This document shows, piece after piece, positions 9,001-52,555 of a stretch of DNA of 64,000 nucleotides; position 1 is the first letter of the stretch; each line of letters opens with the position of its first letter. Where the stretch lies: NCBI GenBank assembly GCA_965649765.1, contig OZ287749.1, forward strand, positions 24,304,001 to 24,368,000. Direction: 5' to 3'. Below the pieces are notes generated by a model that was given only the letters and a program-made list of their open reading frames with translations, was not told where the DNA came from and ran no database searches. This stretch comes from Bispira polyomma (lineage: Eukaryota). Position numbers and translations under genes: made by a program.

Positions 9001-12000
9001 CCAGTACTACTAGGCCATTGTCATTTCGAAACTGCCAAGCCTTTTTACAACTTACCAAAGGTCCCGAAATTTCGAAATGGCAATCGGTCACAAATGGCAA
9101 GACTAGTCACATGTACATTCAATTAGACAAGATTGTATTGACTGTAGTAAGACCTGTACTTGTGTCTACTGTGAACCAGACAAGGCTATGTGTAGGGGGC
9201 AATTTCGACCCCCTCACAGTTGTTTGATAAATCAGTTGCAATTATGAAATAAATCAGTTGCAATTATGAAATAGTTAAGTTGTCAGTGTTGTACACTTGA
9301 AAATTCTACCGTATTGGTTAAAATCAAGCAAAAAATTTTATTAAAATAAATCTTAAACATTTACTCTTTGGGTGTCAAAACGGCCACGACAAGTAAGCAC
9401 TGGGGTTGGGTGTCAAAACGACACCCCTCTGGGGCGTAATGGCGCGTAACACTATGTATGGTTCACCATGTTGTAGAAATGTGTTTACATAAGATTGTAC
9501 TTACTGTAATAAGACCTGTACTTGTGTTCTCCCCACTTCTGTGTTCACATCTCCAGTCATACGAGTCCCATCCCTGATGTAATTCATCACAAATCCTCGG
9601 ATATGCTGTAGTTCCTTCTGAGAACAGACTATGTTCAGCTGAATCAGAGTTGTCATCAGATGCAGCACCTTATTAATAAAGTAAATACTAGAGTTACAAA
9701 GAAAAAACTACACAACTTTACCACATAATTATATATATAGAGCTATCATACAAAGTTACATGTTGTACCAATGAACTTCCATGTAACAGTATCATTGTAA
9801 CCTGACAAGCTTGTATCTGTCGAATCTTGTTGTTTCCTAAGTATGGTAAAATCTACACCCAACCCAAACATGTTGAGAGAGCAATATTTTGATCGGATAA
9901 TATAAGGTTCATAAAATAGTAGAGCTATTTTACTTATTTTTTATCAAAGGTAAATATATTTTGGGAGACCAGTGTGAAATAATCCTTGACAAAATCGTAT
10001 ATTCGGATAATAGAAGTTTTTATAATAGAGGCTCTAGTGTATATAGATCCCTCAAATACCAGTCAAAATGAAAGAATACTTATCTGGGACGACCTGGCAG
10101 AGGTAGATACATACTGGCTTGGATGACTACCTTAAAATGGTGGTCATCTTTATTGGATGCTATTCTCAGTGGCAGGTTAAAGAACCTTAAGGATATTGAT
10201 AAATGGTTATCCTTAAGTCATGGCCTCTCTTGTTAGTTAGGCGAATGACAGTTACAGCGGCTGGTTGGCTGAACTTGGGCCGTCAAGAAAAGGTTATTTA
10301 GTGCTTTGATTACCAGACAAAGGTAGATAACTGAGTATAAGTTTGTACACAAAAGACAATAATACATTGGGTGATGCCATATGGGTCTACTAGCACACCG
10401 AATGTGTAACAACCCACCTCCTTGATGAATATGTTTCTGTCTGCATTCATGCTGTGCATTCTGGGATTACTCTTACAAAAGCCTTTGACCCATTCTTTCA
10501 AACCATGGTATGTGTCATACGTAACCTCTTCCTTTAATAGATAGGAAAATACAACAGGTCATCTGCATGAAAATGAAGTAAACTAAAACTCTTAAAATGT
10601 CCCAAAAAGCAAAGATGGTTTAGCAGCAAGCTTCCAAAACTTGGATGTTTCAATTTGGGTTTAACGTCACTCGTGACCTCTTCCTTTAATAGATAATAAC
10701 ATACAACAAGTCATCTGCATGAGCATGAAGTACACGAAAACTCTTTAAATGTCCCAGAAGACAAAGACGGTTTAACAGCAAGCTTCCCAAACTTGGATTG
10801 TTTTAGTTTGGGTTTCACTTTCACATTTTACAATTTTTTCTGCTACATCACAACGGCAGTTCGCTGATGGAGAAAATTAGAACAGCGTAATTGGTCAAGG
10901 TTTTCTGCTCTAAAAACAACCAGCCTTCAGTCGGTCTACTGACAACATTCCTGTATACGCTCTCAGGCCAAAATTCGAACCCACAATGGCAGAGATGGGA
11001 TGCGAGTGTGACAGGCCTAAAACATTATTCTAATGCACAAGGGTACAGCTTAGCAATAGAGTATACCGATAAAATCAAAATTGTTGGCAGCATACTTCAC
11101 TGCAGAAGTTTATTATTTTAGTTTTAAATAAGGCAAAATTTTGTTAGCTTTCTTATTTTGTTTTACCAAATACACCAATATACTATGAAGGTGGATAGTA
11201 TATTAAGAATGGATCTATGAGCTATTTTTGATGTATAGGTATTCTATACTGATACACATACCATATGGAGAACTTCCGATCACCCGACACCAACTCCCCA
11301 GCCCTGAGCCGAATTGGGAATTGAGAACCTTCTGATCATTATTAAATAATATTAAGTAGCAATAATAATTACTTCACCTCTATTTCTTCTGGGTTCAATG
11401 CCTTTAAGCTGATGTGTTCAAACATGAAGTTGTTGCTTTGCATCCTGGATACATTAGATTGTGTTGCATCTACCTCAAAGAACAAACCTGTAATAACAGC
11501 AGTATATATTAAGGCTACCTGTGACAATTCGAATTAAATTTGGAAAAAACATTTGTCTTGAGCCAACTTCATCCAGGCCATCCAGTAAATATGGCTCTCA
11601 TATGCCTTCGTTGGGCAGTAGGAGCTACTTCAGAATAGATTTAGCCTTCCTTCAGGTTGGCTCTAAAACTGTCATCCATTTAGAAATATGCTTAAAACTG
11701 ATCTATTTTGGTTAGGTTTCCCCTTTGAGGTGGGTTCATGCCCTAGTGATGATTAAAGATGAAGTGGATGATATCTTTGACTATTCCTTTTAGATATGAC
11801 TCTGGATGTGTGTGTTGAAGACTGTTTACTGTGAATCAGGCCCATCCTGCAGTAATAACAGGTTGCAAATATTGTGGTACTGAAGGACAGAAAAATAACA
11901 ATGTTAGGTGTCGACTGCTTGCTGTTCTACTTCATGTGAATAACAACAAATATTATCAACCGCGCTAGGTAACAATATTTATCAACTCGAATATTTACAA

Positions 12001-36000: not shown

Positions 36001-39000
36001 TTGCCCTAACATATTTTATCGGTTAGGAAGAGAATAAAAAAATGAAAAAAAAAATTCTCATACCATTTTATATAGTAGATATTGGAACAAAGGAAGCCCT
36101 ACATCGGTTGATGTTAGCTCAGTTTGGTTTTAATAAATCGGCCAACTTCGGTGCCTGCTAAAAGGAAGCCCTGGCTAAGCCAAATAGTTACTACTAAAGC
36201 CTGGAATGTCACTCGGAACAGGAATAGACCTGCAAAAGTGTTAGTGTATAATAGACTTACATAAAGCAGCCTTCACCTACCTTTGACCTGCCTTTTTTTA
36301 GGGCTATTCTTGTGCTGACTGTGCTATATACATGACAATAGTAACTCAGTATATGTATTTGTCTTGGTATCTTATTCAATTATTTTTAACAGAAGCCTTC
36401 TTTAGTTGCAGTAATTTAATCAATTCTTCAATAATAATACATGTAATAAGATTGCAATGCTTTACACACGCTTTAAACCCATTAAAATTTATTAGACACA
36501 TCAACATACATTGTATTTATTCAAAATTACCCATGAGCTATTTAATATAAATTGAATTTCTTTTTCTATTGCAATTACATTTCCTCACTTTTGTGCGAGT
36601 GCCCTTACTGAAGGCAAAGAATTGGTCACATATCTTCGATGCAATGTAACAAACCAAAAGACGGAAATTATATATATGTAATCAGTCTGGTTTCTTAGTC
36701 AATGCTTATACTGTTAATAGGTAGCCAAGATTATGTAAAACTGTAACACAAGTACAGAGTAAATTGTAAGATTGACTTAGCTAAGAAACTACCAAAGTTG
36801 GTATCCTCAAAAAAATTAATTATATATTGATTAGCTCATTTTAAAAATTTTTTTTAAATGACTAAAATTCTAAATACAGTAGTTATAATGTTTAAATTTT
36901 GGATGATGTTTTTTTGGGCCTGCAAAATATCATTCACTAATTTTTATGATCAGCTTTCTGTATTTATCTTTTGTTTTGTTATTTCCATGTACGTCAGTGT
37001 AAGTATTTTCTTTTTTATTCAATCCATACTTACTAAATTTTTTGTAATAACTTACCTTAGCATTTTCCAGTGAGCTGTCTGACACTGATGACTGTGACCT
37101 GGAGGCTTCATCGTGTAACTTGCGATACCGCTTGGTCAGTTTGTATCGATTCTGGGTCAAAACTTGAAAACTGACAACTGAAATACAATGTAAAAGAATA
37201 ATTATATGAGTGGTAAAGATATACTGTAACATGCTCTTCCCAAGTTTCCATGTTAAAAAAAGGACAGTTTTTATTAACAATTCATAATTAATAGATTTAT
37301 TATATGTATATGTATTGAAAACATCCATTTATTTATGTTAAGTAGAAGTTTTGTTATGTAGAACAATTGTTTATGGTCTCTTCAGATTCGAAATAACAGA
37401 GTTCCATTGCAGGTCAATCAAGCTTGCATAATTAAAAATACATCTCCAAATTTTGTGATGAGGTTTTAGAGCCAAAAGGCACTACATTACAAATGAACCG
37501 CATTGTAACTGGCATAAGATCATTCTTAAGACTCGATTGTGCATACATACTATAATCAGACTATCTGTGGAATTTGTACAGAATCTTTGGACAGTAAACA
37601 TATGTATCAAATATGGCTTAGTGTTCAGTAAGCCATTGAATTCAGTGTTGAGTCACCTCCCTCAAAAGGTCACAAGTACAGGTTATTGCACATATTTTTC
37701 TACATATATAGTTCTACATAGCCTTCATTTAAAATTTGAGTAGGAGGTTAAACTTAAGTTTATTTGGACAACATGTGGCCAGTGCCTGTATTGTACAACA
37801 TGTGGTCAGTGCCTGTATTGTACAACATGTGGTCAGTGCCTGTATTGTACAACATGTGGTCAGTGCCTGTATTGTACAACATGTGGCCAGTGCCTGTATT
37901 GTACAACATGTGGTCAGTGCCTGTATTGTACAACATGTGGCCAGTGCCCGTATTGTACAACATGTGGCCAGTGCCTGTATTGGACAACATGTGGTCAGTG
38001 CCTGTATTGGACAACATGTGGCCAGTGCCCGTATTGTACAACATGTGGCCAGTGCCCGTATTGTACAACATGTGGTCAGTGCCCGTATTGTACAACATGT
38101 GGCCAGTGCCCGTATTGTACAACATGTGGCCAGTGCCCGTATTGTACAACATGTGGTCAGTGCCTGTATTGGACAACATGTGGCCAGTGCCTGTATTGTA
38201 CAACATGTGGCCAGTGCCTGTATTGTACAACATGGGGCCAGTGCCTGTATTGGACAACATGTGGTCAGTGCCTGTATTGGACAACATGTGGCCAGTGCCT
38301 GTATTGGACAACATGTGGCCAGTGCCCGTATTGGACAACATGTGGCCAGTGCCTGTATTGTACAACATGTGGCCAGTGCCTGTATTGGACAACATGTGGT
38401 CAGTGCCTGTATTGGACAACATGTGGCCAGTGCCTGTATTGGACAACATGTGGCCAGTGCCCGTATTGGACAACATGTGGCCAGTGCCTGTATTGGACAA
38501 CATGTGGCCAGTGCCCGTATTGGACAACATGTGGCCAGTGCCTGTATTGGACAACATGTGGCCAGTGCCCGTATTGGACAACATGTGGCCAGTGCCTGTA
38601 TTGTACAACATGTGGCCAGTGCCTGTATTGTACAACATGTGGCCAGTGCCTGTATTGTACAACATGTGGCCAGTGCCTGTATTGGACAACATGTGGCCAG
38701 TGCCCGTATTGGACAACATGTGGCCAGTGCCCGTATTGGACAACATGTGGCCAGTGCCCGTATTGGACAACATGTGGCCAGTGCCTGTATTGGACAATAT
38801 ATGGTCTGGGCCCGTATTGGACAACATGTGGCTAGTGCCCGTATTGGACAACATGTGGTCTGGGCCCGTATTGCACAACATGTGGCCAGTGCCCGTACTA
38901 GACAACATGTGGTCTGGGCCCGTACTAGACAACATGTGGTCTGTGCCCGTATTGGACAACATGTGGCCAGTGCCCGTATTGGACAACATGTGGTCAGGGC

Positions 39001-42000
39001 CCGTATTGGACAACATGTGGTCTGGGCCCGTATTGGACAACATGTGGTCAGGGCCCGTATTGGACAACATGTGGTCTGGGCCCGTATTGGACAACATGTG
39101 GCCAGTGCCCATATTGGACAACATGTGGTCTGTGCCCGTATTGTACAACATGTGGCCAGTGCCTGTATTGGACAACATATGGTCTGTGCCCGTATTGGAC
39201 AACATATGGCCTGGGCCCGTATTGGACAACATGTGGTCTGGGCTTGTATTCACAAAAGGTCTTAAGTCAATATTTAGTCTTAAGTCTGAGACTTTTGTCT
39301 TAAATCTAAGACAAAAAATTGTCTCAAATTGAGTGGTAATCACAAAACAGTTCAGCCAATTTTTTGTCCCAGATTTGGTTTTAAAGTTAAGACTGGTTAG
39401 GAGGTGTCTCTGAAAGTCTTTAACAAAAGGTCTCATTTGTCTCAAATCTACTATATATTTGTTTTTTTTTGTGGACTTTTTGTTTTTTTTTGTTGTTTTT
39501 TTGCTGGCAATATTGTGGTTTAGTAAAATTTCAGTAAAAGTCCATCTAGTGACTCCTTTTAGGTTAAACTTTCTCAGCTATTTTACAATATATTTTTATT
39601 TTAACAGCATGTAAAGATTAAACATCTAATAGAACAAGTAGAACTTACTGGCAGTAGCACAGATCACACTATATGTAGTGTTTTTATCTGGACAATTTAT
39701 CTTCGCTAAATTATTTGTAAAAAACTATTCATTTGGTGTGTAGATAGTATAGTATAAAAAGAGTACCAGAAAAACAGTACCAGAAAACCATTTAATAGTC
39801 AGTGCCTAGTGACACTTTTTTGTATGTTTGCTCATTGTAAGGTGGGCCATTAACTTGGTGTGAATTATGTTCATTTATACTTAGAGATGTTCTTTCAAAA
39901 AAACCTCTCCTCTTTGTCAACCCCCCCCCCCCCCTCCCCCATATCTTTAAAAAAACACACCATATTTATCACAACTTTATATATATATATGTACATATAT
40001 ATTTTTTTGTCCTTGGCAGATGCTGATCCCATAAATCAGACTGCTGATTCACTCTTCCCGCAGAAAACATAATTAAGCATTATCTTACACAATTTTGAAT
40101 GAAACAAATTGTACTTACCAAATACTCTGATGTAATGATTTATTAGTGCACCACCCTCACAAAATGTGCTTAATGATAGAAATGCTTTGTGGTTGTGTGG
40201 GTTTGATAATTATGTGGAATTACTATATAAAGAAACTCCAATCTGACAAGATTTGAAGTCTCTGTCGACAGAAACTCCAATCCTAATTTATTCTTCACTA
40301 TGTGCATGATTAATAAGAATTTGAATTTCAAATCCTGTCAACAATTTTGACAGAAATTTCAATTGGAGTTTCTGTCGATGGAATTTCAAATAATATTAAT
40401 AAAATTTAAACTTTGTAAAAGACACCAAGGAATAAAAACATATTTTATTAAGATCAAATTAATTATAATGAAAATTTAAACTTTGTAAAAGACATCAAGG
40501 AATAAAAACATATTTTATTAAGTTCAAATTAATTATAATGAATACTTAACAAAAATTGTAATACATAATACATGGTAAAAGACATAAAACCCAGATTAAT
40601 AATATCAATAATGTAAAGTCTTCCCCTTTCTTTACTTTAATTATATATTTGTATGTCCATCCAAGAGGTTATAACATTCTGCTTTCTTATCCATATTCAA
40701 ACAACTTTAAATGATACATTTCAGCTTCCAAAGCATAAAGGGCCATTCTATTATGTAAATTGCAAAAACTCAATCAAGGCCATTTTAAGGTACTACTGTT
40801 ATACTCTGGAATGCATAAATCACCTTTGATCAACTTCAAAAAAGATTACTTCTATTCCTCTTTCTTTAATTTATTTATTTAAATTTGTTTACTCTTTATT
40901 ATTTCTTTTTTTCAAAAACAAGCAATGTCATACTATAAGTTGTCTAACTTCAGACATCACCTTTCAACATCAGGATCCATTGTAACATTGTGTATTGTAT
41001 AATATTATGCTAAATAAATATTATTATTAATTCATTTTAATGTTACTGAAGATTTGAATTTCTCTCAATTGAGATTTATGTCAAATATATCTGACAAGAT
41101 TTAAAATTCTGTTGACAGAAATTCCAATTTCAAATCTTGTCACATTGGAGTTTCTGTCACGACATATGCATATATAGTGTTTTTTCAGTCTATTTTACAA
41201 ATGTCAAATACCTGGGATACCAGATTCACATTCACAGGTATGGTATGATAGAAGAAAGATGAAAGATAACAAACTGTATGAGCAGACATCTAAGTAAGAC
41301 CCAATACCAGTAGTAGCGCTATATCTTCCTTTTTCTAATGAGTTATATATTCCGATGAACAGTTTTTTGGCGGAAGAAAGCAGTAGAGTGTACTTGGTCA
41401 AGGTTTTCTGGGATTAAGCATGTTTACTTTACCAATTTTCTCACAGTCATTGGGGACCCCTGGAGAGTGGCCAATATGAAAAGAAGTTATGAGGAAGACA
41501 ATGATGTAGCTCTTTGGGCATTTATTATTCTACACACATCTAACATCTACTTGTTAATACTGTTAGTATATTTCACATTACATTACATACATTAATACAT
41601 ACACTGGTCACCTTAACACAGTTAAGGGGACCTTACATAAAGTTTACCTTTCAGAGGAAGTGGACCTTAAGGCCACCTTAAATTAATATCATTAGTGACC
41701 TAAGGCCACCTTAACTTTAAAAGATTACCAAGGTCTTATGCAAACAAACAGTGACTTAAGGTCACCTTAAATTATTTAAAGGAATTGAGTTAAGGTGAGC
41801 CTAAATGAGAATGATTTGAAAGTTAAGATGGGTACCTGTTTAAGGTTACCTTAATTATTTACATTTAGTTACATTTTAGTTTAAGGCTAGCCAAACTTTC
41901 TTTCAAGGCTACCTTAATGCATAATCCTTTTAAGGTAGAGGTAAAGGTTTACTTTAAAGTTGTTACATGTTATATACTACGTTACAATGCCCAAATGCCA

Positions 42001-45000
42001 GACTGGAATAGTCAATGCGGTATGATGTTTTGTAGGGATTTTGCTACAGAAGAGGAAGCGTTGGGGGTGGACTGCAAGTAGGCCCACACTGCAGCAGATC
42101 GCCAGCCACCATGGGCCATTATGGATTGCAGGTCCACATTATTGTCAAAGGCCAGAGTCGCCCCTGAACGCCTAAAGGAGTGGAAGCTGAAAGACTGCGG
42201 ATTTAATTTTAGTGAAACCATAATTTCTCTCAAGACTTGTCTGACTCTATATGTAGTAAGGGGAACTAACTTGCCCTTCTGTAAATACATAAATACTATG
42301 GATTCTTTAGTGTTTCTATTTTTTGCAAACATGGTCCTGAGTGCAGCCACAGGACACAAGGGGGAATTACCTAAAGCAGGCAACTGTACCACATGATACT
42401 GATTATACTTCCGTAAATTCTTAGCCCACCTGAGTACCACATGGACTCCAGGAGGGCTCCAAACAAAGTCCTCACAAGTGAGATGTCTCTGGGGGTCAAA
42501 TTGAGTGATACGTGAAGGAACTAAATTAGAGAGTCTAAAAAAGCCAAAAAAGGCTGTGAGAAATAAAGCTTTATACATATAAGCATGTGAATAAGCGGAG
42601 GCCTGCTGAAGGATGGAAGAGAGAATGGGAATGGTTATAATACCTTTCAATCTAGGTGAATAAGGGGTAGAAAGCGACAATGACTTAAAAAACAATTTAA
42701 TTTGTGGATGGGAGAACACATGCACTGGATAATCCCATAACTGGAAATAAAATTTTATAGCCGACAAATAATTTTGAATTGAAGGGGGTTTGAGCCCCTG
42801 CTGAGCAAGATATTCACAAAATTGCAGCATAAACTGGAGAGATTCCAGTTCCATCACACCCAGGAATATAGCAAATGCTAGAAAAAGTCTGATTGAATTT
42901 TCATAGGCCTGTTTCGTTCTTGCCGTCATGGCATTGTGTAACCTAGCCCTGGCGGAGTCATTGAGGAAATTTTGAAGGGGGGTACCTGAAATTGCATTAA
43001 AAGGCAGTATTCAATACAAAATTTTCATTTGTGACCTCCCACCATTCCTTCCGCATGACCTGCTCATGGACTTTAGGATTTTTGGTATCTGGAATAAACA
43101 TACGGGACAAATTGTCAGCCTGTACATTCTTTATTCCTGCAATATGGACAACGTCCAATTGGATATTGTTTTTTGCACTTTCTAACCATATGGATCTGGC
43201 TATTATACCCAAGCCTGGGTCATGGAACCTGCTAGAATTCAAACCTGCCACTACGGCGCCATTATCACACCAAACTTTTAATGTGGAATTGCTGAAACAT
43301 TTTCCCCATACCCTCATTGCCACGAGTATATTCCACATCTCGAAGTGGACAATACCAAAAGAGTTTGGTTTATGTTCAGGGAGGGCAGCAGCATACACAC
43401 TGTCCCCCCACATGGCCCCAATGCCAATAAGAGAGGCATCAACGTACAGCTCACTCACTGGTTCATCTTTGAGATGCATCTCCACTACCCCGTTGAATTT
43501 ATCTAAGAAAACATGGAACCATTCAAGATCAGCTTTGAACTCTCTGGACAGGGCTATGTTTCTACTAGGGTAGGTATGTCTGAGCAACCTCAACATTCTA
43601 TTAAGGAAAGTCTAGCAGGAGCCACACACCTATGGACGTACAATAACTTGCCTAGAATCGACTGTAGTTCTCTCCTAGTGCACTTTTGCTTGGTTCGCCA
43701 TTGGCTACACATAGTTTTGATCTGTGTGAGTTTATCTTTAGGAATTTTTAAAGTTCCCGTACTTGCGTTAACTAGAATACCCATACACACCACCTCCTCT
43801 GCGGGGGGGGGGGGGACACCTTTTTATGATTTATGGGTAGCCCTAGATGCTCAATTAACTGGTACAATTTGTCAAATGACTTTTGAGCTTTATCATCCGT
43901 TTCTACGGCAACTAGATCATCGATATAGTTCCATATATGGTATCCCTGCGCTCTCATTAACCGACGGATACTGTCAGTGACACGTTCGCAGACCGCGGTA
44001 CTATGCTTGTATCCCATCATAATGGCTAAATCAATATAGATATTCCCTAACCACTTAAGGCCCGTGTACTTGTAATCGCCCGGGTCAATCCTTAAATTTC
44101 AAAACGCGCGGGAGAGATCCAGTTTGTATAGTTTTGCTGTAGGACCAATTTCGTTTATCCGATTAACCAACATGTCAATAGTGGGTAAAGTGAGGATGAA
44201 TTCCTGGCCGTCATATAACCCATCGGTCACCACGCTATTAACTGAAGTGGAATCATGTGGCCAAGAAAGGTCCACTATTATGCGCCGAGAGTTGTCATCT
44301 TTAGGTCGCGTCATAACGGGTGAGCAGTGTAAAGCCTTATAAGGGATTTCTGTGAAGGGACCTGCAATGGCCTTATGCAAATGTTCAGTGACAAAGTATG
44401 TATCAAGACTGTCAGGGAATTGGTCAGCGCTGTCATGATTCTTGACATCACGATTAAACACAAAACCCTCTTTGTTCATGTCAAGGGGGAAACCGAACTC
44501 CAAATACTCAGGAAGCAATGTGTCACAATCACCTTTCAACACCTGACGCCAAGCTTCTATGTTGAGCTCAGAGGGCACAGGGACTCGAGCCCCCAAATAA
44601 TTGGGACAATCCCAACCCCCCACTAACTCATGTGCCATGACCGCCCATTGTTCCAACGTGTCAAAATTAATTACATTTCTGTGAACAGGGACACCATTAA
44701 AAGCTTTGTACATGCATTGGAATCCAAAGTTATCACTTAACACCCACTTTACTTTTGATACCCTTCACAATTGGGATATCCTGCACCTGCACTACTTGAC
44801 GCCTTGTTGATACCATAGGGGGGCTGCCCCTTAATTGTGGTTCATTAATACATAATGGAATAACTTCCTTTGAAACGTCAGAAAGGGGTTTGCCCTGAAT
44901 AAAGACTGAATGATCGGGGGGGGGGGGGGGAACCCTCAATGTTTTTACTACGTGGTTTTTTTTCTGTCAACTTCTCACCCCTTTCGCTCAGAGGGGGGGG

Positions 45001-48000
45001 AATAACTCTCGTTAAAGAAGTGTCTACCCCGTCTCTAATTGGACTGCTGTCAACATTAATTAAACCAGTGACATCACTGCCAACTTGTTTACTGCTGCCA
45101 ACTTGTTTACCACGGCACCTGTGTAAACATGCATTGTTAATTGTTTCAGGACATAGAATACATTTATTAGTACTTTTAGGCGGGAACCTACCTATACAGA
45201 TTTCTCTGGTGTTCCCGCTCTTTTTACAGGGCGGGAAGCCCACCTCTGCTCTACCTGTACACTGGTTATCAACATCAGACTTTACATATATACACTTTTC
45301 TCCCTCACGGGGTTGTTTACTTGATACACATTCAGTGTTACCATTACAATTTTGTACATCAGAATCTACTGTCCCCTCCTTCTTATGCCCCTTGGGAACA
45401 TAGAGCCGGGTAGGAACAATATTGTTATATTCACAGTTCTTTATCTCATGTACAACATAGCTATCAAAGTGGACCTTATAACTCCTGTTACTGTTGGCAA
45501 CAGTGCTAAAGGCACTGTTCCATATTACCCTTGAACGCACTGGAGGTCAATTCTGGGAGTTTTGTTGAACTCCTTAGATTGGTTTTGGGTTTTACCACAA
45601 TTAATTTCCCTGTGGAGCAGAATCTTTTTGGTTTGGTTGTAACACTTAGAACAAGCGTGTTTAAGTATCATTGAGCCAAATACATGATCATCAGGCTGGC
45701 TACATGTGCCCTTGTTAAACGCCGTGCACATGAGAACAGAACTTTTAGGTTTTGACTTGGAGTTTGAACTAAAACCATTGACAGATTCGTTACCAGAAAC
45801 GTCCTTAAGGGTACGCTGTGTTAACCGAGCCCTCAACTCGTGTATCTGGCTAAGGTTTCCCCAATTTGCCTTCCCCTTCTCAATCTCAAGCAACACCTGA
45901 CAATGGGCGCTTTTAATGGTATACCAACTAGTTTCTAACCCATCCCTCATGAGCTGCATACCATATTGCAGCATGTTGTCGCCCACAGAGGCGTCTTTTT
46001 CTTCAAACACACACCCTAAGTAACCTTGGAAAAACATAAGGGGGGTAAGATCCTGATATGAAGGTTGTTTTTTGCCAGAGGCATTATAGCAAAGCTCATG
46101 GGGCCAATTAATAACGTGTTTAACTGAGTGTTCGTTGGTTCGCTGCAACCCAGACTTTAATTTCTTACCGCTTTCAGGCGATGTCAGATAGTGGGAGCGA
46201 TTCCTGGTCAGTCACTGGTCAACTTCAGCTTGTATTCTCTCGTTGGTTCTCAAGAAACGCTGACTCGGCAGAATGGTCTCCTCAGCCGGCAGTCGATCAT
46301 AAGTTTGAGCATAGTCAGGGTCATAGTAGGGGTTTGACTTCCCCCTAAGCCCGTTTCTTAGTCCATGCAGCTCATTAACATCTGCCTGTGTGTCAGCAAC
46401 ATAACCCCGGTGCACTGGAGAGCTGTGTGAAGAAGTATCCTGGGTTAAAGTGTCAGTTCTTTTTCTGGCCCCTTGCTCCCGCTTCACCTCACACATTTCA
46501 CTTTCCAAGTGCTGTAACTTATCCAGAATTATGTTAAGTTTATCACCTACAGGCACTTTCCCCGGCTGGGCGTCTACTCCACTGTCCACCACTGATCTCG
46601 CGTTAGGTGTAACTTCCCAGGCTCCCTGCTGTTGAGATTTCTTCCTCTCCCTGGTAGCGGGGGTACTCGTCACGGCTAGGTCCAGCTTGCACTGTCTCCC
46701 GACTGGCCTGGCATGTACAACACTACAACGCTTGCAATATCCTGATCTGGTTGCCATAGTTTAACACAACCTACAATAGTTCTATAGTGTCTTTTTAGAA
46801 ATGTTTTTCTCTGTAAAATAGAATACAGGATTCTGCAGTTTATGCTTACATGAAGGCACGTACATGAAATTTTGTTGAATGAAATTCACAAAATAATGAA
46901 GAGAACACAGATGTGTGAGCAATTAACAGTGTACGTCCCCCAAAAACACGGCTATGAAGCCATAACAAGCATAAGTTGCAGACTCCCAATGAAGCAGCTT
47001 CTTCTGACACAGAACTGAAAATTACACAGGGTTTTATAGTTCCATTTCGTACCGCAGAGCCTTAATGGAACAGTCCATCACTGGGGGAAATAAGAGGGGT
47101 GATAATAATAAGTTTCTCACAGAAGGAGGGGGGACCCCTCAGACTGACCCAAAGTGCTACGCATCTTTTACACCATTGTAATTGTAATCAGAGTTATACT
47201 CAGCACATATATCTACCTTCATCTGGTATTTAGGGCAACTAATTAACCCTTTCCTGACTGTAACAGTCAACTGTCTCAGTTACAGTCATTCCCCCTAACT
47301 GAAGAGAGAGACTTGAGGATGACCATTTATCAATGTCCCCAAGGATCTTTAGCCCTGCCACTGGGGATAGGACCCAGTGACAGAGGACCGCCATTTTAAG
47401 TGGCCATCCGAGCCACTAGGCAAACATGTGTACACATCTTGCCCAAGGATGTTATCTCACTAATGATACTAGCAGTCAGTACCGGGAATAGAACTCAGGA
47501 CCTTCTGATCATCAGACCAACTCCTTAACCACTAGGCCATGGGGGACCACATGTCAAATAAACTTTTCTACATACATGGCAGGGCTGAGGATTGAACCTA
47601 CAATGGCAGAGGTGAAACACAAGTGTATTACCACAAAGGTCCCATGCCCCCCCTAGTGATTAGAAGTATTTCTTTACCCATGACTTGCCTTTCACCTCTG
47701 TTGACAGCAGTTTGAATCCCACTGGATCCTTCATGCGGTAAATTATGATAGGATCAACTTGCCATTTTTAGTTTAAGACACCATGGCTTTATTTTTAGTT
47801 TAAGACACCATGGCTTTGTCTAGTTTGTATGCCTCTTAATTCCTACTATGTACAGCGTTGGTCATTTTACCTTGTAGGTTTTTCCTTCACCTAATATATC
47901 TGACAAATTTGAAATTACCTAAAATATTGAAAGTGACGCAGAACCTAGACCAAATAATCTGTCCCTATTTAGCGAGATTCCTTACTGATATTTGGACGGC

Positions 48001-51000
48001 TGAATCACGAAAAGGGACAGAACGGCCTCCATAAGCAAAACGTTGTAAATTTAACCTGACGTAACATGGCCGACAGTGTTAAACTGGTGTATGTGGTTTG
48101 GTTTTTATTTTATATTAATTTTTATGTACCATATAGGCACGATACAACACAAAATCGGCTACTATATCATATATAAGGAATGAAGGGATGTATTTATTTT
48201 TATCAGATTCTATCTCTGTATATGCCGATTTTGATTTACAACGTTTTGCTTATGGAGGCCTTTCTGTCCCTTTTCGTGAGTCCGTCGGCAAAATAACAGC
48301 AAGGAATCTTGCTAAATAGGGACAGATTATTCGGTCTACGCAGAACCAAATAAACTTCAACACAAAAACCCAAGCTTTTGCTGGGTTATTAGCCAAATGA
48401 TGCTATAACTTAGAGAAGTCTTGAGACCTCCCCAAAATTAGGAATCCTATTTTGTCATTATAAGAATAACAGAGCATTGATTTCATAAAATCATAAATTT
48501 GTGATGTTTCTGTGATACCTTAAATCTATGTTTACTAAAACTCACTTGTTTGATATAGGTGTATGCATTAAAAAGTACCTGCAGAATTAACAGCCAAACT
48601 AAAGAGCAAATCAGTGACTTGTTCTACTGAATGACTTAATAAATTAGAGAACCATGGCATATTATGTATACTCTGTCTGTACATGTCAAATGTCCCATAT
48701 CCACAGGATTTATTGATTATTTAAATACAAGTATTTATACAGCGCCTTATTGATATGTCATTCTCTAAGACACTCATTCCCCCGAAAAGGATAGTCCTAC
48801 AAAATAGCCTGGGTCATCATTAGTAGGCAATGGCGTGTTCACATCTTGCCCAAGAATATTATCCCACTACTGAACCAAGCGACATTAGGAAGAGTTGAAC
48901 CAGGGACCTTCTGATCACCAAACCAACTCCCCCAGTGGAAGTATAAGTGGGAAGCTTCCGATCACCAGACCAAATCTTTAACCACTAGACAACGATTGAA
49001 CAACATTCGGTTTTACTTTAGGGAATAATATACCTGTCAGATTTTGCTTCCGAATCGTCATTCGATGTCCGTTACCGTCATCTGAAAATCTATATATATT
49101 TAAAAAAATTGGCTCCCGAATCTGAGATGACGTCAGCCAAGTGTATTCTACTTCTTTATAGTTTGATTTTTTTCGGATGACGTAAATGTGCATCAGATAA
49201 CCGATTTGAAAGCAAAATCGGACAAGTGTATTCGCCCCTTTATGGGGGTAATTTTTACTAATACACAATTTAAATTAGAATGAATGTTTGCCCAGAAAAT
49301 CAGTTCAAGCTATAAATAGATTTGATTTCACATTCATTTGGTTACAGTGCAATATGCAAGGCACTAGATAGTAAGTCTACGTTTGCATGTCAGCAATTGC
49401 CAACGGCGATCAGCCGACATCCGACGGGCAATCGGCAATTTTTATGTTTCCAAACAATTATTTGAGAAAAATAGATACCTGTATTTAAACTTAAATATTT
49501 TAGCCATTTAGCAAACGATTTTGAAGCAACAAAAAGCACAATATACCCAATAAAATAAGCTTTCTCATCATATTTTCTCGAAATTTTACCTTACTACTAG
49601 TACCAAAAAGAATCGCCTGACATTGCCGGCCGCCTGTTAGTGTTGCTCATATGGAAACACTTTGTTATAAATCAATGAAACTGATAAAATTGCCATCGGC
49701 TTGGTGGCTCAGAAAATTGCTTGCATGGAAAGACTCACTGACCCTTGTATTTAATGAACACAGGTAAAAATCTACATCAGTGTTATTTATATATTGAAAT
49801 GTCCTCAGTTGATGATAACTGGACCACTTGACGACATTCTCATCCACTCTTATTTCTCTGCTTACATCTTAAACACTCATAAATCTAAACTGATTGCGCA
49901 GTTCACGTATTAAAATTGCCAAGGAAAATTGCCCATTCATGAAAACCTGTGAAGGTTGAAAAAGGTTTTTCAGTTTTTAACAACCTTTAACAACCTTCAG
50001 NNNNNNNNNNNNNNNNNNNNNNNNNNNNNNNNNNNNNNNNNNNNNNNNNNNNNNNNNNNNNNNNNNNNNNNNNNNNNNNNNNNNNNNNNNNNNNNNNNNN
50101 NNNNNNNNNNNNNNNNNNNNNNNNNNNNNNNNNNNNNNNNNNNNNNNNNNNNNNNNNNNNNNNNNNNNNNNNNNNNNNNNNNNNNNNNNNNNNNNNNNNN
50201 NNNNNNNNNNNNNNNNNNNNNNNNNNNNNNTTTAGGGTCTTGATGTGTCAAACACCATAAAGGATTTATGAAGATGTTGTTTTTATTTATAAATGGCCTG
50301 AGTTTCCTTGGACCACTTAAATGGACACAGTCACTTACAGACACAGAAAGTGTATTAAAACATCTCACACATCTAATGGGTCAGATATTTGAAGGTTAGT
50401 ATGTGATTATTAGGTTCATATCCTTTGTGTATAAATATATGGAAATGCACATTAGTAGATTAACTTGTCCATAAGATACTTAAAGGAAAGTTTAGCCAGA
50501 ATAAAATATTGGCGGCAATGCAGTTGTTTTGCCAATAATGTACATTTGCACCACATTATTCTCTTAAATATAGTTTCAGTCTTAACTTTTCATTGGGAAT
50601 TAATTTTCACTGTTGAAAGCTAATAGAAGAAAAAAATATATGCATTTAATTATTGGATAAAATTTCCACTTATTCAGTATTAAACTGAACCCTTCAAGTA
50701 GAACTCTCTTAAGTTGATTAGAACACTTATGTGGAAGAAAATCTCCCATAAAAGCCCTTATTTCAAAATCTTTAATATTTCATCTCAACAGCAAGCATTT
50801 TTACATTTCACAAATAAATTCATAATTGCAAACAATTTGTCTACTTTGTAAAATTATTGTTGCTTACAAATATTACCTAACAGTATGAACATTTTAAAAC
50901 TGAGGTAAGTTTTTTGCATTCACTACACAATCTTATCGTCTAAAACAATAGGAATGCAAAGAGCAACTTGTTCCATTTGTGCACCATTCCATACTTGCCA

Positions 51001-52555
51001 CAAAGCACATTTAAGGGTCTGGTTCAAAGCATCAAACATTTAGTTTGTACACCCTTTAAACATACTATGTACGTTAGAGTTCTGGTTCAAAGCATCAAAT
51101 TTAGTTTATACACCCTTTCTACTTGCCATGTACATTAGGAATCTGGTTGAAGGCAACATGGTTTGTCCAGTTTACAGCTTTAGTTTGTACACCTTAAGGA
51201 TCTGGTTCAAGGCATCATGGTTTTGTAAACCTTTAGTTAGTACACAATTTCATACTTACCATGTACATTCGAGATCTAGTTCGACGCATCATGGTTTTGT
51301 CCAGTGTATACCCATAGTTTGTAAGCCTTTATGATTTGGTTCAAGGCATCATGCTTTTGTCCAGTGTTCACCCACCGTTTGTACACCTTAAGGATCTGGT
51401 TCAAGGCATCATGGTTTTGTCCAGTCTACATCCATAGTTTGTACGCCTTAAGGATCTGGATCAAGGCATCATGGTTTTGTCCAGTGTACACCCATAGTTT
51501 GTACGCATTAAGGATCTGGTTCAAGACATCATAGTTTTGTCCAGTGTACACCCATAGTTTGTATGCCTTGAGGATGTAGTTCAAGACATCATGGTTTTAG
51601 TCCAGTGAACACCCATAGTTTGTATGCCTTAAGGATCTGGTTCAATGCATCATGGTTTTGTAAACCTTTCATTTGTACACCAGTTCATACTCACCATGTA
51701 CATCATTAGAGATCTGGTTCAAGGCGTCATGGTTTTGTCCAGTGTATAAACGTTTAGTCAGTACACCATTTCATACTTACCTTGTACACTTAAAATCTGG
51801 TTCAAGGCATCATGATTTTGGTTGAGTCTGTAAATCTGTTAGTACACCATTTCATACTCACCATGTACATTAGATATCTGGTTTAAGGCGTCATGGTTTT
51901 GTCCAGTATACACTTTCAAACCATTGTTCTTGACACTGAAAGGATATTGAAGTAAGAAAACTGAAATACTGAGTGCATAAATTTTTAAATATAAAATTCA
52001 TATTTCTTTTTGCAAAATAATGAATTATATACACAAGTATATACATTAATGTTTCTCTTCTTTATTTAATGCCTATCTACTGAGAAAAATATGAGTGAAT
52101 ATTATTTGATACATTTAGTTTAAATATATTAATACATAATATATATTTAGTTTTTAAAATACATTTTAAAATCAATAATTTTTAGGCGTGACACAAAAAA
52201 TCTTTAACATACACTGAAAATTTTTTTTTATTACTTTTTGTAAACACACAATGTAAAACAACCATTTTTTACTTAGTAACCACATCTATGTATCCTATAT
52301 GGTTATTACCTACACTTTAGTCACTTGAATTTTTGCATTTACTATAAAATAGAAAACAAAGTATTCAAAAATGGTGTTAAAAAATTTGGATGAAAGTGAA
52401 CACGTTACAAAAATGATGGCGACAATTAATGGTAACAAAAGTGTTATTCCCCCACATTACCTGGTATCCTCACTGTACACAAATCCCTTGGCCTCTTCAC
52501 TGTATAAACAGATATAATCCCCAATCCGGAGACAGTGCTCTAAACTGGGATCCAT
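1..52555 (-). CDS. Divergent inositol 1,4,5-trisphosphate receptor-like Ca2+ release channel, N-terminal ~1160 aa (33 exons; continues beyond window start)
   Basis: Manual join 52555-52461,51935-51862,37177-37056,33430-33344,32024-31947,31003-30923,29382-29203,27123-27036,24283-24176,23626-23549,23221-23072,22618-22539,21444-21319,19806-19756,18941-18852,18270-18088,17275-17153,15467-15363,13572-13468,12945-12874,12620-12488,11487-11378,10531-10418,9668-9505,8072-8018,7678-7560,6800-6704,4683-4576,3872-3736,2894-2827,1698-1643,1225-1061,85-1 = 3487 nt. GT/GC-AG boundaries, matching phases, no stop. Motifs are colinear with ITPR: LRIGDYICLYSE (LHIGDICSLYAE), QNRYK (MNRYS), RRLLGQPIKYGDIVQLRH (RKLLGTVIQYGNVIQLLH), GGSVVQLFHKD (GGDVVRLFHAE), ELVRNNR (ALLHNNR), QLQLYKKLC (QLNLFARMC), LRYLCQGNAFVQ (LQNFCAGNQQNQ). 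Confidence 0.93.
130..499. mobile_element. MITE family with aaggggtgaatatacctg TIRs (TTAA-type, Kolobok-like)
   Basis: Related copies at about 20050-20380 and 49018-49241. Confidence 0.7.
829..1047 (+). mobile_element. tRNA-derived SINE family A
   Basis: A-box TGGCCTAGTGG, core ggtcggtggttt, tail aagctattgaaagtgac...taaattcaaat; other copies at about 7327-7550, 22735-22875, 24450-24555 plus 25448-25545, 27250-27465, 47650-47945 and 63540-63675. Confidence 0.85.
1061..1225 (-). CDS. IP3R-like exon 32: ERYNMVEVVTTISLTLLRYLCQGNAFVQDWLYDNIIEFL...IME
   Basis: RIH2 motif FC.GN..NQ..L. Confidence 0.9.
1643..1698 (-). CDS. IP3R-like exon 31: (G)ILEVILQLSTQVADIKLE
   Basis: ctcccccag / GTATGA; phase 1 to 0. 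Confidence 0.82.
2827..2894 (-). CDS. IP3R-like exon 30: (E)LSHVKGKLDESIIVAQNILINN
   Basis: start of the second RIH domain (QQRLLRNMG-like). Confidence 0.83.
3736..3872 (-). CDS. IP3R-like exon 29: VIVSAKSEAIQRE...ELCQILDRLL
   Basis: ttttccag / GTAAGG; phase 0 to 2. Confidence 0.85.
4576..4683 (-). CDS. IP3R-like exon 28: ALANVEDNTLRRKCLSLLNTYYSSKHDLLRTASRTQ
   Basis: matches [23 protein letters not shown]. Confidence 0.87.
4978..6411. mobile_element. Non-autonomous DNA transposon with about 120-bp TIRs and nested inverted repeats
   Basis: 4978-5099 inverted at 6291-6411; inner IR 5424-5507 / 5768-5852; no clear TSD. Confidence 0.85.
6565..6676. mobile_element. Tc1/pogo-type MITE (TA-CAGT...ACTG-TA)
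   Basis: Relatives at about 3360-3672, 9890-10040, 13125-13220, 26850-27017, 29450-29601 and 32140-32330. Confidence 0.65.
6704..6800 (-). CDS. IP3R-like exon 27: (W)DHFTLKVKVGMLLREMSNKADFVGDEVAKTLF
   Basis: tttttggcag / GTATGT; phase 2 to 0. Confidence 0.78.
6837..7143. mobile_element. TTAA-flanked piggyBac-like MITE
   Basis: ttaaccctttt...aaagagttaa; inverted homologues at about 27880-28115 and 34665-34907. Confidence 0.6.
7327..7550 (+). mobile_element. SINE family A copy abutting the exon 26 donor
   Basis: Colinear with 829-1047; B-box-like gggtttaaatcc. Confidence 0.82.
7560..7678 (-). CDS. IP3R-like exon 26: FLLGSFKDLQEK...DDYDSSGI
   Basis: tttttgcag / GTAGGT; phase 0 to 2. Confidence 0.78.
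8018..8072 (-). CDS. IP3R-like exon 25: (Q)SLELVDILLAKQFWRRMK
   Basis: ttcttcag / GTGACT; resembles IIEILQFILNVRLDYRI. Confidence 0.8.
9505..9668 (-). CDS. IP3R-like exon 24: VLHLMTTLIQLNIVC...TQVQVLL
   Basis: taag / GTAAGT; phase 0 to 2. Confidence 0.82.
10418..10531 (-). CDS. IP3R-like exon 23: EEVTYDTYHGLKEWVKGFCKSNPRMHSMNADRNIFIKE
   Basis: AAG acceptor (exact 5' edge uncertain), GAG|GTGGGT; matches KNKLTFEV. Confidence 0.8.
10521..10818. repeat. 152-bp tandem duplication covering the exon 23 acceptor
   Basis: 10521-10672 versus 10673-10818, diverged copies. Confidence 0.88.
11378..11487 (-). CDS. IP3R-like exon 22: (G)LFFEVDATQSNVSRMQSNNFMFEHISLKALNPEEIE
   Basis: ttattacag / GTGAAG; phase 1 to 0. 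Confidence 0.82.
12367..12507. repeat. 19-bp tandem repeat (acatacctgtaatgagctg, about 7 copies) spanning the exon 21 donor
   Basis: Direct inspection. Confidence 0.93.
12488..12620 (-). CDS. IP3R-like exon 21: GQNQRALELL...VPDSVRALVCQLIT(G)
   Basis: matches LPYDLRASFCRLML; the donor lies in a 19-bp tandem repeat. Confidence 0.85.
12874..12945 (-). CDS. IP3R-like exon 20: VEEDNHTNVTFFTKQLQLYKKLCF
   Basis: matches YYRYQLNLFARMCL. Confidence 0.9.
13468..13572 (-). CDS. IP3R-like exon 19: ESLCHLIHGKQIGRGNDVYISTDNGEHWTSLAKFV
   Basis: ctatcag / GTAAGA; a second in-frame donor lies at 13447. Confidence 0.82.
13792..15075 (+). mobile_element. Non-autonomous Helentron-like (HINE/DINE-type) element hosting the 42-bp array
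   Basis: ccgccaaggaggtta...gtttgtttg microsatellite...atgaaatttg layout; related minus-strand pieces at about 25570-25760 and 2680-2735. Confidence 0.6.
13902..14982. repeat. 42-bp minisatellite (some 41-bp units), about 26 copies (atgggttagatatgagcctaggaagaatccattacattttca)
   Basis: Direct inspection. Confidence 0.97.
15363..15467 (-). CDS. IP3R-like exon 18: ESYFFDLLGSLCTSDGIAITENQVQIAETLVRSCK
   Basis: RIH motif FLDYLSDLC...Q. Confidence 0.92.
17153..17275 (-). CDS. IP3R-like exon 17: NGVGRLCCQTMMELVRNNRTVIDRILPQHVDDIIELFSQQK
   Basis: RIH motif xLxxNNR. Confidence 0.92.
18088..18270 (-). CDS. IP3R-like exon 16 (RIH): MVDSFLEFLH...SNSVSNRLYCARFLPVFRHQLCLN
   Basis: tttcag / GTATGT; aligns to [22 protein letters not shown]. 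Confidence 0.88.
18725..18908. repeat. Duplication of the exon 15 3' end plus donor, with 12-bp (ttttatcatccc) sub-repeats
   Basis: tagtctcaccttagtgtgtttta at 18725 and 18843. Confidence 0.9.
18852..18941 (-). CDS. IP3R-like exon 15: TFDELQRRLSMKRDDKRDDKEKYNILKHTK
   Basis: cttcag / AAG|GTGAGA; position equivalent to PNRERQKLMRE. Confidence 0.8.
19756..19806 (-). CDS. IP3R-like exon 14: KHAGHLLTAIESLKITR
   Basis: ttgttccag / GTGAGT, 51 nt, phase 0; homology weak. Confidence 0.7.
20740..21200 (-). mobile_element. Degenerate L2-like LINE 3' fragment, related to the 34050 copy
   Basis: LSVSSTRPTEKSVG...KWNKL...FRSCLKTY with frameshifts. Confidence 0.6.
21319..21444 (-). CDS. IP3R-like exon 13: LKTSQTREYPDAFILQKVTTSEVDLFNYVFGLVPFMREIRDM
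   Basis: matches KEAFAIVPVSPAEVRDLDF. Confidence 0.9.
21542..21758. mobile_element. Palindromic MITE
   Basis: aaggaatctcaaatt...gccacc / ggtggcg...aatttgagattcctt. Confidence 0.65.
22539..22618 (-). CDS. IP3R-like exon 12: (D)FTYQRQLNTEGDSLETIQYDQATLLQ
   Basis: tttttcag / GTACAC; phase 1 to 0. Confidence 0.82.
23072..23221 (-). CDS. IP3R-like exon 11: (G)SSEFVPEASERTLFRFYP...VRICHQHWDSWINGTS
   Basis: phase 1/1; MIR motif similar to VRLRHLCTNTWVH. Confidence 0.87.
23549..23626 (-). CDS. IP3R-like exon 10: (G)ESLKWGDKFHLLHLTTRMYLTFDEE
   Basis: matches MIR motif WNSLFRFKHLATGHYL. Confidence 0.9.
24176..24283 (-). CDS. IP3R-like exon 9: (A)HLRVRKRNEMKMKSFLPPKNCSTYWQVVRGDSAIS; GC donor
   Basis: ttacag acceptor; CAG|GCAAGC donor; matches FLRTTGR...ALWEV. 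Confidence 0.85.
24556..25447 (-). mobile_element. 5'-truncated L1/Tx1-clade LINE (zf-RVT C-terminus) with 14-bp TSD
   Basis: FQFKILHRI...CSYC...LEHFFFYC...FWKQV...NYILLIGKYYI; A-rich tail; TSD tacagtgctttatc at 24542-24555 and 25448-25461. Confidence 0.9.
27036..27123 (-). CDS. IP3R-like exon 8 (MIR): GGSVVQLFHKDLEAYMAAEGVYPNVYNET; GC donor
   Basis: ctccag acceptor; CAG|GCAAGG donor gives the phase 1 needed by exon 9. Confidence 0.85.
27250..27465 (+). mobile_element. SINE family A copy
   Basis: Colinear with 829-1047. Confidence 0.82.
28256..28597. mobile_element. PIF/Harbinger-like MITE (GGGGCCTTACAGAC TIR, TAA flank)
   Basis: Inverted ends and (acactac) subterminal repeats; partial copy at about 8116-8232. 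Confidence 0.65.
29203..29382 (-). CDS. IP3R-like exon 7: VELEDQIVLESVKSIGTFLHV...AEVLR
   Basis: ttttacag / GTACGG; 180 nt. Confidence 0.88.
30923..31003 (-). CDS. IP3R-like exon 6: VKLDDYNSKHAQFRIVPRYKVKTEGER
   Basis: tttttcag / GTATGT; matches FYIQPFYKLRSIGD. Confidence 0.9.
31025..31395 (-). mobile_element. L2/CR1-group LINE 3' fragment
   Basis: SFAVDAPIVWNAIP...FRKQLETHLY; (attaca)n tail. Confidence 0.8.
31947..32024 (-). CDS. IP3R-like exon 5: LRHVFTSKFLLVSTTETSAVDRNKML
   Basis: ttccag / GTAAGT; matches LLHLKSNKYLTV. Confidence 0.9.
33344..33430 (-). CDS. IP3R-like exon 4: EAAEIEVKDNLTEQRRLLGQPIKYGDIVQ
   Basis: 87 nt, phase 0/0, strong ITPR suppressor-domain motif. Confidence 0.93.
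34050..34370 (-). mobile_element. L2/CR1-group LINE 3' fragment
   Basis: VGSRDFSVAAPMLWNRLP...FRKKLAYPP*; (caata)n tail. Confidence 0.78.
37056..37177 (-). CDS. IP3R-like exon 3: VSFQVLTQNRYKLTKRYRKLHDE...ENAK
   Basis: tttcag / AAG|GTAAGT; NRY motif. Confidence 0.9.
37764..39250. repeat. 27-bp minisatellite, about 55 copies (ggacaacatgtggccagtgcctgtatt)
   Basis: Direct inspection; produces the 9-aa periodic pseudo-ORFs. Confidence 0.97.
40230..41160. mobile_element. Element with repetitive TIRs (gacagaaactccaat/gacaagatttgaa) and an internal ~59-bp tandem duplication
   Basis: 40230-40390 inverted at 41045-41160. Confidence 0.6.
41521..41526 (-). terminator. Candidate polyadenylation signal (AATAAA) of the retrotransposon
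   Basis: About 490 nt after the YR stop, directly adjacent to the terminal motif. Confidence 0.4.
41606..41956. repeat. Array of about 10 dispersed palindromic 15-mers TTAAGG-NNA-CCTTAA in the element 3' UTR
   Basis: Copies at 41622, 41667, 41700, 41756, 41790, 41840, 41881, 41903, 41942 and a half copy at 41606. Confidence 0.85.
42012..42929 (-). CDS. Tyrosine recombinase (phage-integrase family) of the retrotransposon, intact
   Basis: 305 aa; catalytic R (FFRLSNL), K (WAKN), HxxR (HSFRR), H/W (HGGW) and Y (AVWAYL) all present; frame open upstream to a tttcag acceptor at 42986. Confidence 0.95.
   Translation of the reverse strand: MTARTKQAYENSIRLFLAFAIFLGVMELESLQFMLQFCEYLAQQGLKPPSIQNYLSAIKFYFQLWDYPVHVFSHPQIKLFFKSLSLSTPYSPRLKGIITIPILSSILQQASAYSHAYMYKALFLTAFFGFFRLSNLVPSRITQFDPQRHLTCEDFVWSPPGVHVVLRWAKNLRKYNQYHVVQLPALGNSPLCPVAALRTMFAKNRNTKESIVFMYLQKGKLVPLTTYRVRQVLREIMVSLKLNPQSFSFHSFRRSGATLAFDNNVDLQSIMAHGGWRSAAVWAYLQSTPNASSSVAKSLQNIIPH
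42997..45540 (-). pseudogene. pol (N-terminal extension, reverse transcriptase, RNase H) broken by several frameshifts
   Basis: RIIVDLS, KLDLSRAF, NYIDD, GLPINHKK, LQSILGKL; RNase H YVDAS...HFEM...VWCDN...HIAGIKNVQADNLSR; frameshifts near 44930 (poly-G), 44740, 44100, 43810 (poly-G) and 43600. Confidence 0.92.
45525..46757 (-). pseudogene. gag-like ORF1 with one in-frame stop (TGA 46212-46214)
   Basis: ORFs 46757-46212 and 46148-45525 share a frame; N-terminal CxxCxxxHxxPxGxxC, GKKLKSG...WPHE, C-terminal CxxFNxGxC...H...HxCxxC...H. Confidence 0.82.
47032..47038 (-). promoter_or_regulatory. Candidate TATA box (TATAAAA) of the retrotransposon
   Basis: About 130 nt inside the putative 5' end and about 275 nt upstream of the gag ATG. 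Confidence 0.4.
47310..47548 (-). mobile_element. tRNA-derived SINE family B (CORE-like ccttgggcaagatgtg)
   Basis: A-box TGGCCTAGTGG, B-box GAGTTCTATTCC; copies at about 2005-2207, 16790-16930, 25855-26086 and 48800-48990; body shared with 10090-10215, 26580-26680 and 34410-34520. Confidence 0.82.
47946..48338. mobile_element. MITE with about 100-bp TIRs (TAGACC...GGTCTA) and 9-bp TSD, Academ- or MuDR-like
   Basis: TSD cgcagaacc at 47937-47945 and 48339-48347. Confidence 0.9.
50001..50230. other. Assembly gap (230 N)
   Basis: Run of N. Confidence 1.
50985..51910. repeat. Degenerate 60-85 bp tandem array derived from the 3' part of exon 2 and its donor site
   Basis: Units share gatctggttcaaggcatcatggttttgtccagtgta with exon 2 (51876-51910). 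Confidence 0.9.
51862..51935 (-). CDS. IP3R-like exon 2: (S)VKNNGLKVYTGQNHDALNQISNVH(V)
   Basis: tcctttcag acceptor, G|GTGAGT donor; 74 nt, bridges phase 2 to phase 1 as required. Confidence 0.82.
52461..52555 (-). CDS. IP3R-like exon 1: MDPSLEHCLRIGDYICLYSEEAKGFVYSEDT(S)
   Basis: ATG at 52555; donor AG|GTAATG; matches the ITPR N-terminus. A cag 3 nt before the ATG suggests an upstream non-coding exon. Confidence 0.88.

Follow-up and report, generated by a model that had tools for sequence, protein, structure and literature searches.

We analysed a stretch of 64,000 nucleotides (nt) from the genome of Bispira polyomma (GCA_965649765.1, contig OZ287749.1, positions 24,304,001 to 24,368,000; hereafter the window), which carries a copy of a tyrosine-recombinase (YR) retrotransposon with gag, pol and YR in that order, all on the minus strand. 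The element is of the Ngaro type, a known kind of YR retrotransposon (order DIRS) without methyltransferase. A first-pass annotation of the same DNA had proposed that intact members of this family express the recombinase as a spliced fusion with the N-terminal part of Gag. After comparison of the element with its relatives, we consider this mode of YR expression probable. The proposal gained from phase-1 splice sites conserved among relatives, from the missing YR start codon, from a joined open reading frame (ORF) in the sister clade and from RefSeq gene models.

In the proposed mechanism, the unspliced RNA of intact members would be both the genome and the message for Gag and Pol, while splicing of a fraction of the RNA would connect two phase-1 sites, a donor in the gag linker and an acceptor located just 5' of YR. 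Splicing would take out the gag core, the reverse transcriptase (RT) and RNase H, and would leave the Gag N-terminus, with its zinc knuckle and predicted coiled coil, connected to the whole recombinase. Since 100-265 Gag codons are retained, the product should be a true fusion protein and not an env-like protein with a short leader. The analogy with env that had been drawn for this element thus holds for the expression of a 3' ORF by splicing, but not for the product. The window family presumably uses exactly the intron ends 46168 and 42986. As for the retained Gag part, our guess is that it serves to bring the recombinase into Gag particles or to anchor it on nucleic acid.

The predicted donor of the window copy, GCG|GTAAGA, has its GT at 46168-46167 (minus strand), 589 nt (196 codons and one nucleotide) into gag from the ATG at 46757, and is in phase 1. 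The acceptor sequence is ...ttttaatgcaatttcag|GTACCC; here the intron ends at 42986, 11 nt 3' of the RNase H stop codon (42999-42997, minus strand), and the site is in phase 1 relative to the YR frame. The exon lengths sum to a multiple of 3, so that removal of the 3183-nt intron joins the Gag N-terminus in frame to the whole recombinase. These sites and lengths agree with what the first-pass annotation had described, as do the zinc finger of the Gag N-terminus (Cx2Cx3Hx7C) and the TGA at 46214 upstream of the donor. Because of this stop the window copy itself should be unable to make the fusion. Most other copies of the family, as judged from contigs of three runs (two samples of one study), do not carry it (depth 79/95, 93/93 and 311/311 in the three runs). 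The YR frame of the window copy is open (42012-43010, minus strand; 332 amino acids (aa) from stop to stop) and keeps all the catalytic residues, R159, K197, H277, R280, H300 and Y311. Its pol is broken by a stop near 44100 and by frame changes near 43800 and 43608.

Relatives were compared as a set of 80 metagenome loci (L numbers below) plus the window; 52 of these 81 sequences extend far enough 5' of YR and make up 22 single-linkage families. A quick YR tree (53 rows, midpoint root) was made without named reference Ngaro elements, and the lineage is therefore not named further. The tree splits into two well-supported groups: clade A (25 rows), containing the window, L001, the closest protein matches and L005/L010-type loci, and its sister clade B (28 rows), containing the proteins of zebrafish and bivalves and the loci that carry a hydrolase ORF. 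The closest intact relative is L001, with a YR identity of 42%. Scans of viral contigs and of prokaryote genomes detected no relatives. In 11 related elements the corresponding intron is 2173-3441 nt long, with GT-AG ends in 10 of them. Because it is conserved in relatives, the pattern of sites is above chance.

The acceptor is conserved. Within 15-150 nt 5' of YR helix 1 the best AG was in phase 1 in 18 of 22 families, compared with 33 of 99 control windows, and the mean acceptor score was 4.9 before YR as against 1.5-2.4 in the controls. A phase-1 best acceptor was missing in four families, namely, the window itself, L009, the degenerate L016 group and the L040 group, in the last of which the phase-1 site scores best in two of four loci. 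At the protein level, 74 of 121 rows of YR homologs did not reach far enough for the translated acceptor pattern to be assessed; 44 of the remaining 47 show it, compared with 106 of 610 background windows. As the clade B acceptor overlaps the end of RNase H, the pattern there could be a by-product of the motif at that end. The acceptor Gln codon within this overlap is invariably CAG (16 of 16 elements), compared with 106 of 220 elsewhere in the same pol frames. In 26 of 27 elements the YR frame opens just 7-85 nt 5' of the acceptor, and YR has no conserved start codon: the first in-frame ATG lies anywhere from 77 codons before the anchor to more than 40 after it, and 6 of 29 elements have none by +40 from the YR anchor.

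With respect to the donor, the Gly-Lys of gag had been suggested to be constrained for spelling GGTAAG. This was not borne out, since the hexamer is not conserved: the donor of L001 is AAG|GTAATT, in phase 1 and eight codons 5' of its own Gly-Lys, in which glycine is encoded by GGC. Conservation in relatives, which had been put forward as a check, was found for the phase-1 acceptor and for a phase-1 G|GT-purine donor in the gag linker, but neither for GGTAAG nor for a fixed position. What appears from the alignments to be conserved is a donor in kind, somewhere in the gag linker, and not its exact letters. A donor-type glycine is present 19-36 residues before the WP motif in 87 of 120 gag homologs, and the donor pattern is fitted by 99 of 173 linker glycines as against 441 of 2047 other gag glycines. 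The fit is poorer in an acidic-linker subgroup of gag (27/46); the linker region is lysine-rich. The L005/L010 lineage has a glycine, located by protein motif alone, that follows the WP motif by 5-6 codons; at this glycine all 13 loci (9 distinct gags with identities of 24-73%) have AG|GT. Clade B lineages have phase-1 donors 3' of the linker helix or at an ILAG motif. At the level of codons, the donor-site glycine is GGT in 19 of 19 elements (other glycines, 99/291), and A|GGT|purine is found at the donor site in 17 of the 19 (other glycines, 12/291).

We searched with a profile for proteins of at least 400 aa. Among 30 matches (7998 candidates scored), eight had the two parts already joined, a Gag N-terminus and the whole YR without RT. 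One of these, P0277, matches L040 in two separate segments. The first (residues 12-65) stops at the predicted donor (1157); the second begins with residue 66 at the first whole codon 3' of the predicted acceptor (3331). The contig of P0277 is 1729 nt long and the L040 intron 2173 nt, so the contig itself is without such an intron. The same junction is present in the zebrafish RefSeq protein XP_009304434.1 and three cluster mates. Six bivalve RefSeq models also have a Gag N-terminus joined to the whole YR, seen as a layout at the protein level. Weak HeH/SAP matches were detected in two clade B fusion proteins. As a separate observation, the zebrafish RefSeq proteins of the P0276 cluster, named 'proline and serine-rich protein 1-like', are retrotransposon Gag-YR fusions.

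Several points weigh against the proposed splicing. The splice sites of the window copy are moderate: its donor is the top scorer among the 73 GTs of gag, but an equally good phase-1 donor arises in 73% of synonymous-codon shuffles of this gag, and a phase-0 AG at 43089 slightly outscores the acceptor under a rough scoring matrix. The donor shifts between clades and does not occupy a single homologous position across lineages; 33 of the 120 gag homologs are without a donor-type glycine in the linker, score or analogy played a part in the choice of 10 of the 19 donor sites, and the protein patterns, including that of the acceptor, were defined after the alignments had been seen. The unbiased donor test on whole ORFs is weak, with the top donor in phase 1 in 18 of 20 gags where 14.4 were expected (10 of 20 pol and 9 of 19 YR frames). 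All eight fusion proteins belong to clade B, with no junction for the window family or clade A. No clade A fusion was found among the 120 listed of 322 near-length matches, three longer matches and the listed members of 10 clusters; the profile search is blind for clade A, because it missed the known long clade A proteins P0001 and P0002. No gag-YR joint was found among the 15 joints listed from the contigs of the three runs, which contain 633 further joints. P0277 is a single record that may represent RNA or a processed or deleted DNA copy. The RefSeq fusions are predictions, and the models P0274, P0288 and P0293 connect the same donor to other acceptors, for which reason gene models alone prove little.

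The best surviving alternative, still an unlikely one, is that the acceptor is real but is paired with a different 5' exon, for example a short coding leader. The window includes a 16-nt mini-frame that starts at an ATG at 46865 and ends in a phase-1 GT at 46849 (minus strand), and acceptor-like sites with scores of 5.5-6.0 are located 5' of the gag ATG in the window, L001, L005 and L037. These pre-gag acceptors, however, share no common phase, the donors inside gag are kept at synonymous positions, and each of the eight recorded fusions contains the Gag N-terminus.

Less probable still, YR could be translated together with Pol as one polyprotein, by way of a frameshift or of readthrough where RNase H ends. 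Overlap between the YR frame and the RNase H end amounts to 14 nt in the window, a fixed frame overlap is kept in one clade, and P0001 and P0002 contain Pol and YR in a single ORF, which also speaks against the spliced fusion. In L001, however, a spacer of about 330 nt with stops separates the RNase H stop from the acceptor, and the polyprotein would leave the pyrimidine tracts, the invariant CAG and P0277 unexplained. Equally improbable is the production of YR alone from the ATG at 42929 by re-initiation or from an internal promoter, the splice-like sites being incidental: this ATG, the first of the window YR frame, is in frame 68 nt 3' of the RNase H stop, and internal Met residues recur in two columns of the alignment (30 of 105 and 35 of 114 homologs), but a start there, 12 residues inside the Pfam match to the SAM-like domain, would remove the first helix of that domain, and the ATG is not conserved, as noted above.

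Use of the gag-linker donor for Pol as well was considered and rejected: the best acceptor before RT is in phase 1 in just one of 10 anchored elements (13 of 23 were unanchorable), and for this reason Pol seems not to be made from the gag-linker donor. In four loci gag and pol share a frame and are separated by just one stop codon, and in other loci they overlap, which suggests that Pol is made by readthrough or frameshifting. Another rejected candidate is the gag-YR join in L008 (1252-1277), which as a splice is out of frame, is not GT-AG and lies on a 3-nt microhomology; it is a deletion that joins Gag codon 147 to the YR start, and a full copy adjoins it.

A wider reading can be offered only tentatively. 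Splicing of the Gag N-terminus to YR might be a general and old way for Ngaro-type elements to make their integrating enzyme, the retained Gag might be a module for packaging or chromatin tethering, and the working enzyme might be the Gag-YR fusion instead of the annotated ORF3. Under the same tentative reading, the module proposed for tethering would be the zinc knuckle in clade A and an HeH/LEM- or SAP-like domain in clade B, with a coiled coil in each.

Coordinates of the features are collected in Table 1. In run X1 the summed contig depth over 41570-47170 was 52-453, and the difference-free contigs gave about 15. The ends of the element are approximate, with repeats of much higher copy number on both flanks. 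Those adjoining the 5' end (47175-48500) are of very high copy number and include 105-nt inverted arms at 47946-48050 and 48234-48338.

Table 1. Positions of the predicted splice sites, coding regions and related features (window coordinates unless a locus is named)
Feature	Position	Strand	Remarks
YR retrotransposon copy	about 41570..47170	-	multi-copy family; from contig depth; both ends approximate
Acceptor-like site	46810..46830	-	53 nt 5' of gag ATG; possible 5' leader intron end
gag	ATG 46757 to stop 45525	-	
Zinc-knuckle-like motif Cx2Cx3Hx7C	46686..46733	-	N-terminal gag; from sequence
Predicted exon 1, gag N-terminus	46169..46757	-	CCHC knuckle, coiled coil (inferred from sequence), linker helix
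Premature gag stop TGA	46212..46214	-	5' of donor; absent from most other copies
Predicted phase-1 splice donor GCG|GTAAGA	46163..46171	-	related donors in relatives
Predicted GT-AG intron, 3183 nt	42986..46168	-	contains gag core, spacer, RT, RNase H
Conserved gag core	45525..46168	-	KSG..WP motif, helical bundle, C-terminal Cys/His domain; outside fusion
Low-complexity frame between gag and RT	44878..45546	-	frameshifted in window copy; no Pfam match
pol (RT and RNase H)	42997..44764	-	no methyltransferase
Predicted phase-1 splice acceptor ...tgcaatttcag|G	42985..43002	-	
Predicted exon 2, whole YR	42012..42985	-	SAM-like domain and catalytic residues
Single gag-pol stop codon	L001:1122-1124		
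Single gag-pol stop codon	L008:3720-3722		
Single gag-pol stop codon	L010:1194-1196		
Single gag-pol stop codon	L013:1991-1993		

A zinc-knuckle motif similar to that of the window was found in 41 of 82 gag homologs of at least 300 aa. The gag core was modelled (46211-45528, minus strand) with confidence (predicted local distance difference test score, 84) as a helical bundle followed by a Cys/His domain; the model gave no clear match in the PDB, a result that is evidence neither for a new fold nor for a known one. In the ESM Atlas nothing was obtained for the Gag N-terminus, and YR matched generic integrase clusters alone. Pfam matches were obtained for RVT_1 and Phage_integrase in window frames and for RT_RNaseH in L001. 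The pol of the window copy ends at RNase H, and no methyltransferase match was found in the window frames or in the pol of L001. An SGNH hydrolase ORF is present in L004, L018, L033 and L037 and absent 3' of YR in the window, where no ORF of at least 80 aa was found.

Split direct repeats of the form A1-B1-A2-B2 are clear in the clade relatives L010 and L016. In the window copy no repeat was found between the 5' and 3' ends, just a weak repeat inside the 3' end, and its terminal ends may have been lost. An AT-rich stretch 3' of YR (41660-41900) has recurring short palindrome-like motifs, and near it other copies of the family skip 184-223 nt; the stretch may be the remains of terminal repeats. 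L016 has, besides its split direct repeats (4551-4677 and 8678-9186), a further copy of repeat A in inverted orientation at its 3' end, and in L006 (226-688) a terminal repeat is fused directly to the RNase H end, with no gag or RT and with acceptor and YR intact. Elsewhere in the window are a long array of 27-nt tandem repeats (37729-39250), open in several frames on both strands, and a degenerate 60-nt tandem repeat (51011-51913).

If the proposal is correct, the conserved splice would explain how a downstream YR ORF without a start codon is expressed, and predicts Gag-YR as the real enzyme. The annotation of YR retrotransposons would change, because such fusions are listed in RefSeq under the names of host proteins ('uncharacterized' or 'proline and serine-rich'), and so would the testing of their recombinases. 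The junction would also provide a one-junction assay for activity in animals such as zebrafish. The abstract of Goodwin and Poulter in 2004 is said to mention spliceosomal introns in some YR elements, a possible partial notice of such splicing, and Repbase notes may be another. No description of a spliced Gag-YR message was found in the literature searched. Such a message does not occur in the portions available of PMC9341512, PMC6681497, PMC3266345, PMC4495291, PMC10294476, PMC2632668, PMC8547959, PMC8226300 and bioRxiv 10.64898/2026.05.21.726589. The Gag-YR splicing strategy thus appears to be undescribed in the literature searched.

Ngaro elements are defined by the order of gag, RT/RNase H and YR and by the lack of methyltransferase, and in the excerpts of the same papers YR is treated as a separate ORF3 whose expression is not addressed (PMC4157794, PMC7192593). 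The ORF order and the lack of methyltransferase are the same here, as are the split direct repeats of the clade relatives L010 and L016; the window copy differs in showing neither split repeats nor the hydrolase ORF, which according to an excerpt is carried by only some Ngaros (PMC7192593), and its YR lies outside the clade of the zebrafish protein. Pat1-like elements, as far as the excerpt describes them, have a Gag zinc finger, split direct repeats and a methyltransferase domain (PMC4157794). The CCHC motif in Gag of the window copy may correspond to that zinc finger, and split repeats are in the relatives, but assignment to the Pat1-like elements was rejected as no methyltransferase was seen in the window frames or the L001 pol. 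A DIRS1-like assignment was likewise rejected, the window copy having no methyltransferase and no inverted match between its 5' and 3' ends above the level of shuffles.

Retroviruses and Drosophila gypsy make a spliced env mRNA, in which gag and pol are removed from the genomic RNA to reach the 3' ORF. The window element would differ from them in keeping 100-265 Gag codons and in having an integrating enzyme, not an envelope, as the 3' product. In murine leukaemia virus an alternative donor inside gag gives rise to Gag-integrase fusions, which are accessory products with only a fragment of integrase, and foamy virus makes Pol from a spliced mRNA with its own start. In these viruses, as proposed here, a gag-internal donor or splicing serves the expression of the enzyme region; in the window element, in contrast, the whole recombinase seems dependent on the splice. 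Conserved alternative splicing also sets the protein ratio of plant Ty1/Copia retrotransposons, as described for shGAG in the excerpt of PMC5580714. There, the protease region is removed and translation ends early to give Gag alone (PMC5580714, same excerpt), in contrast to the Gag-enzyme fusion predicted for the window family.

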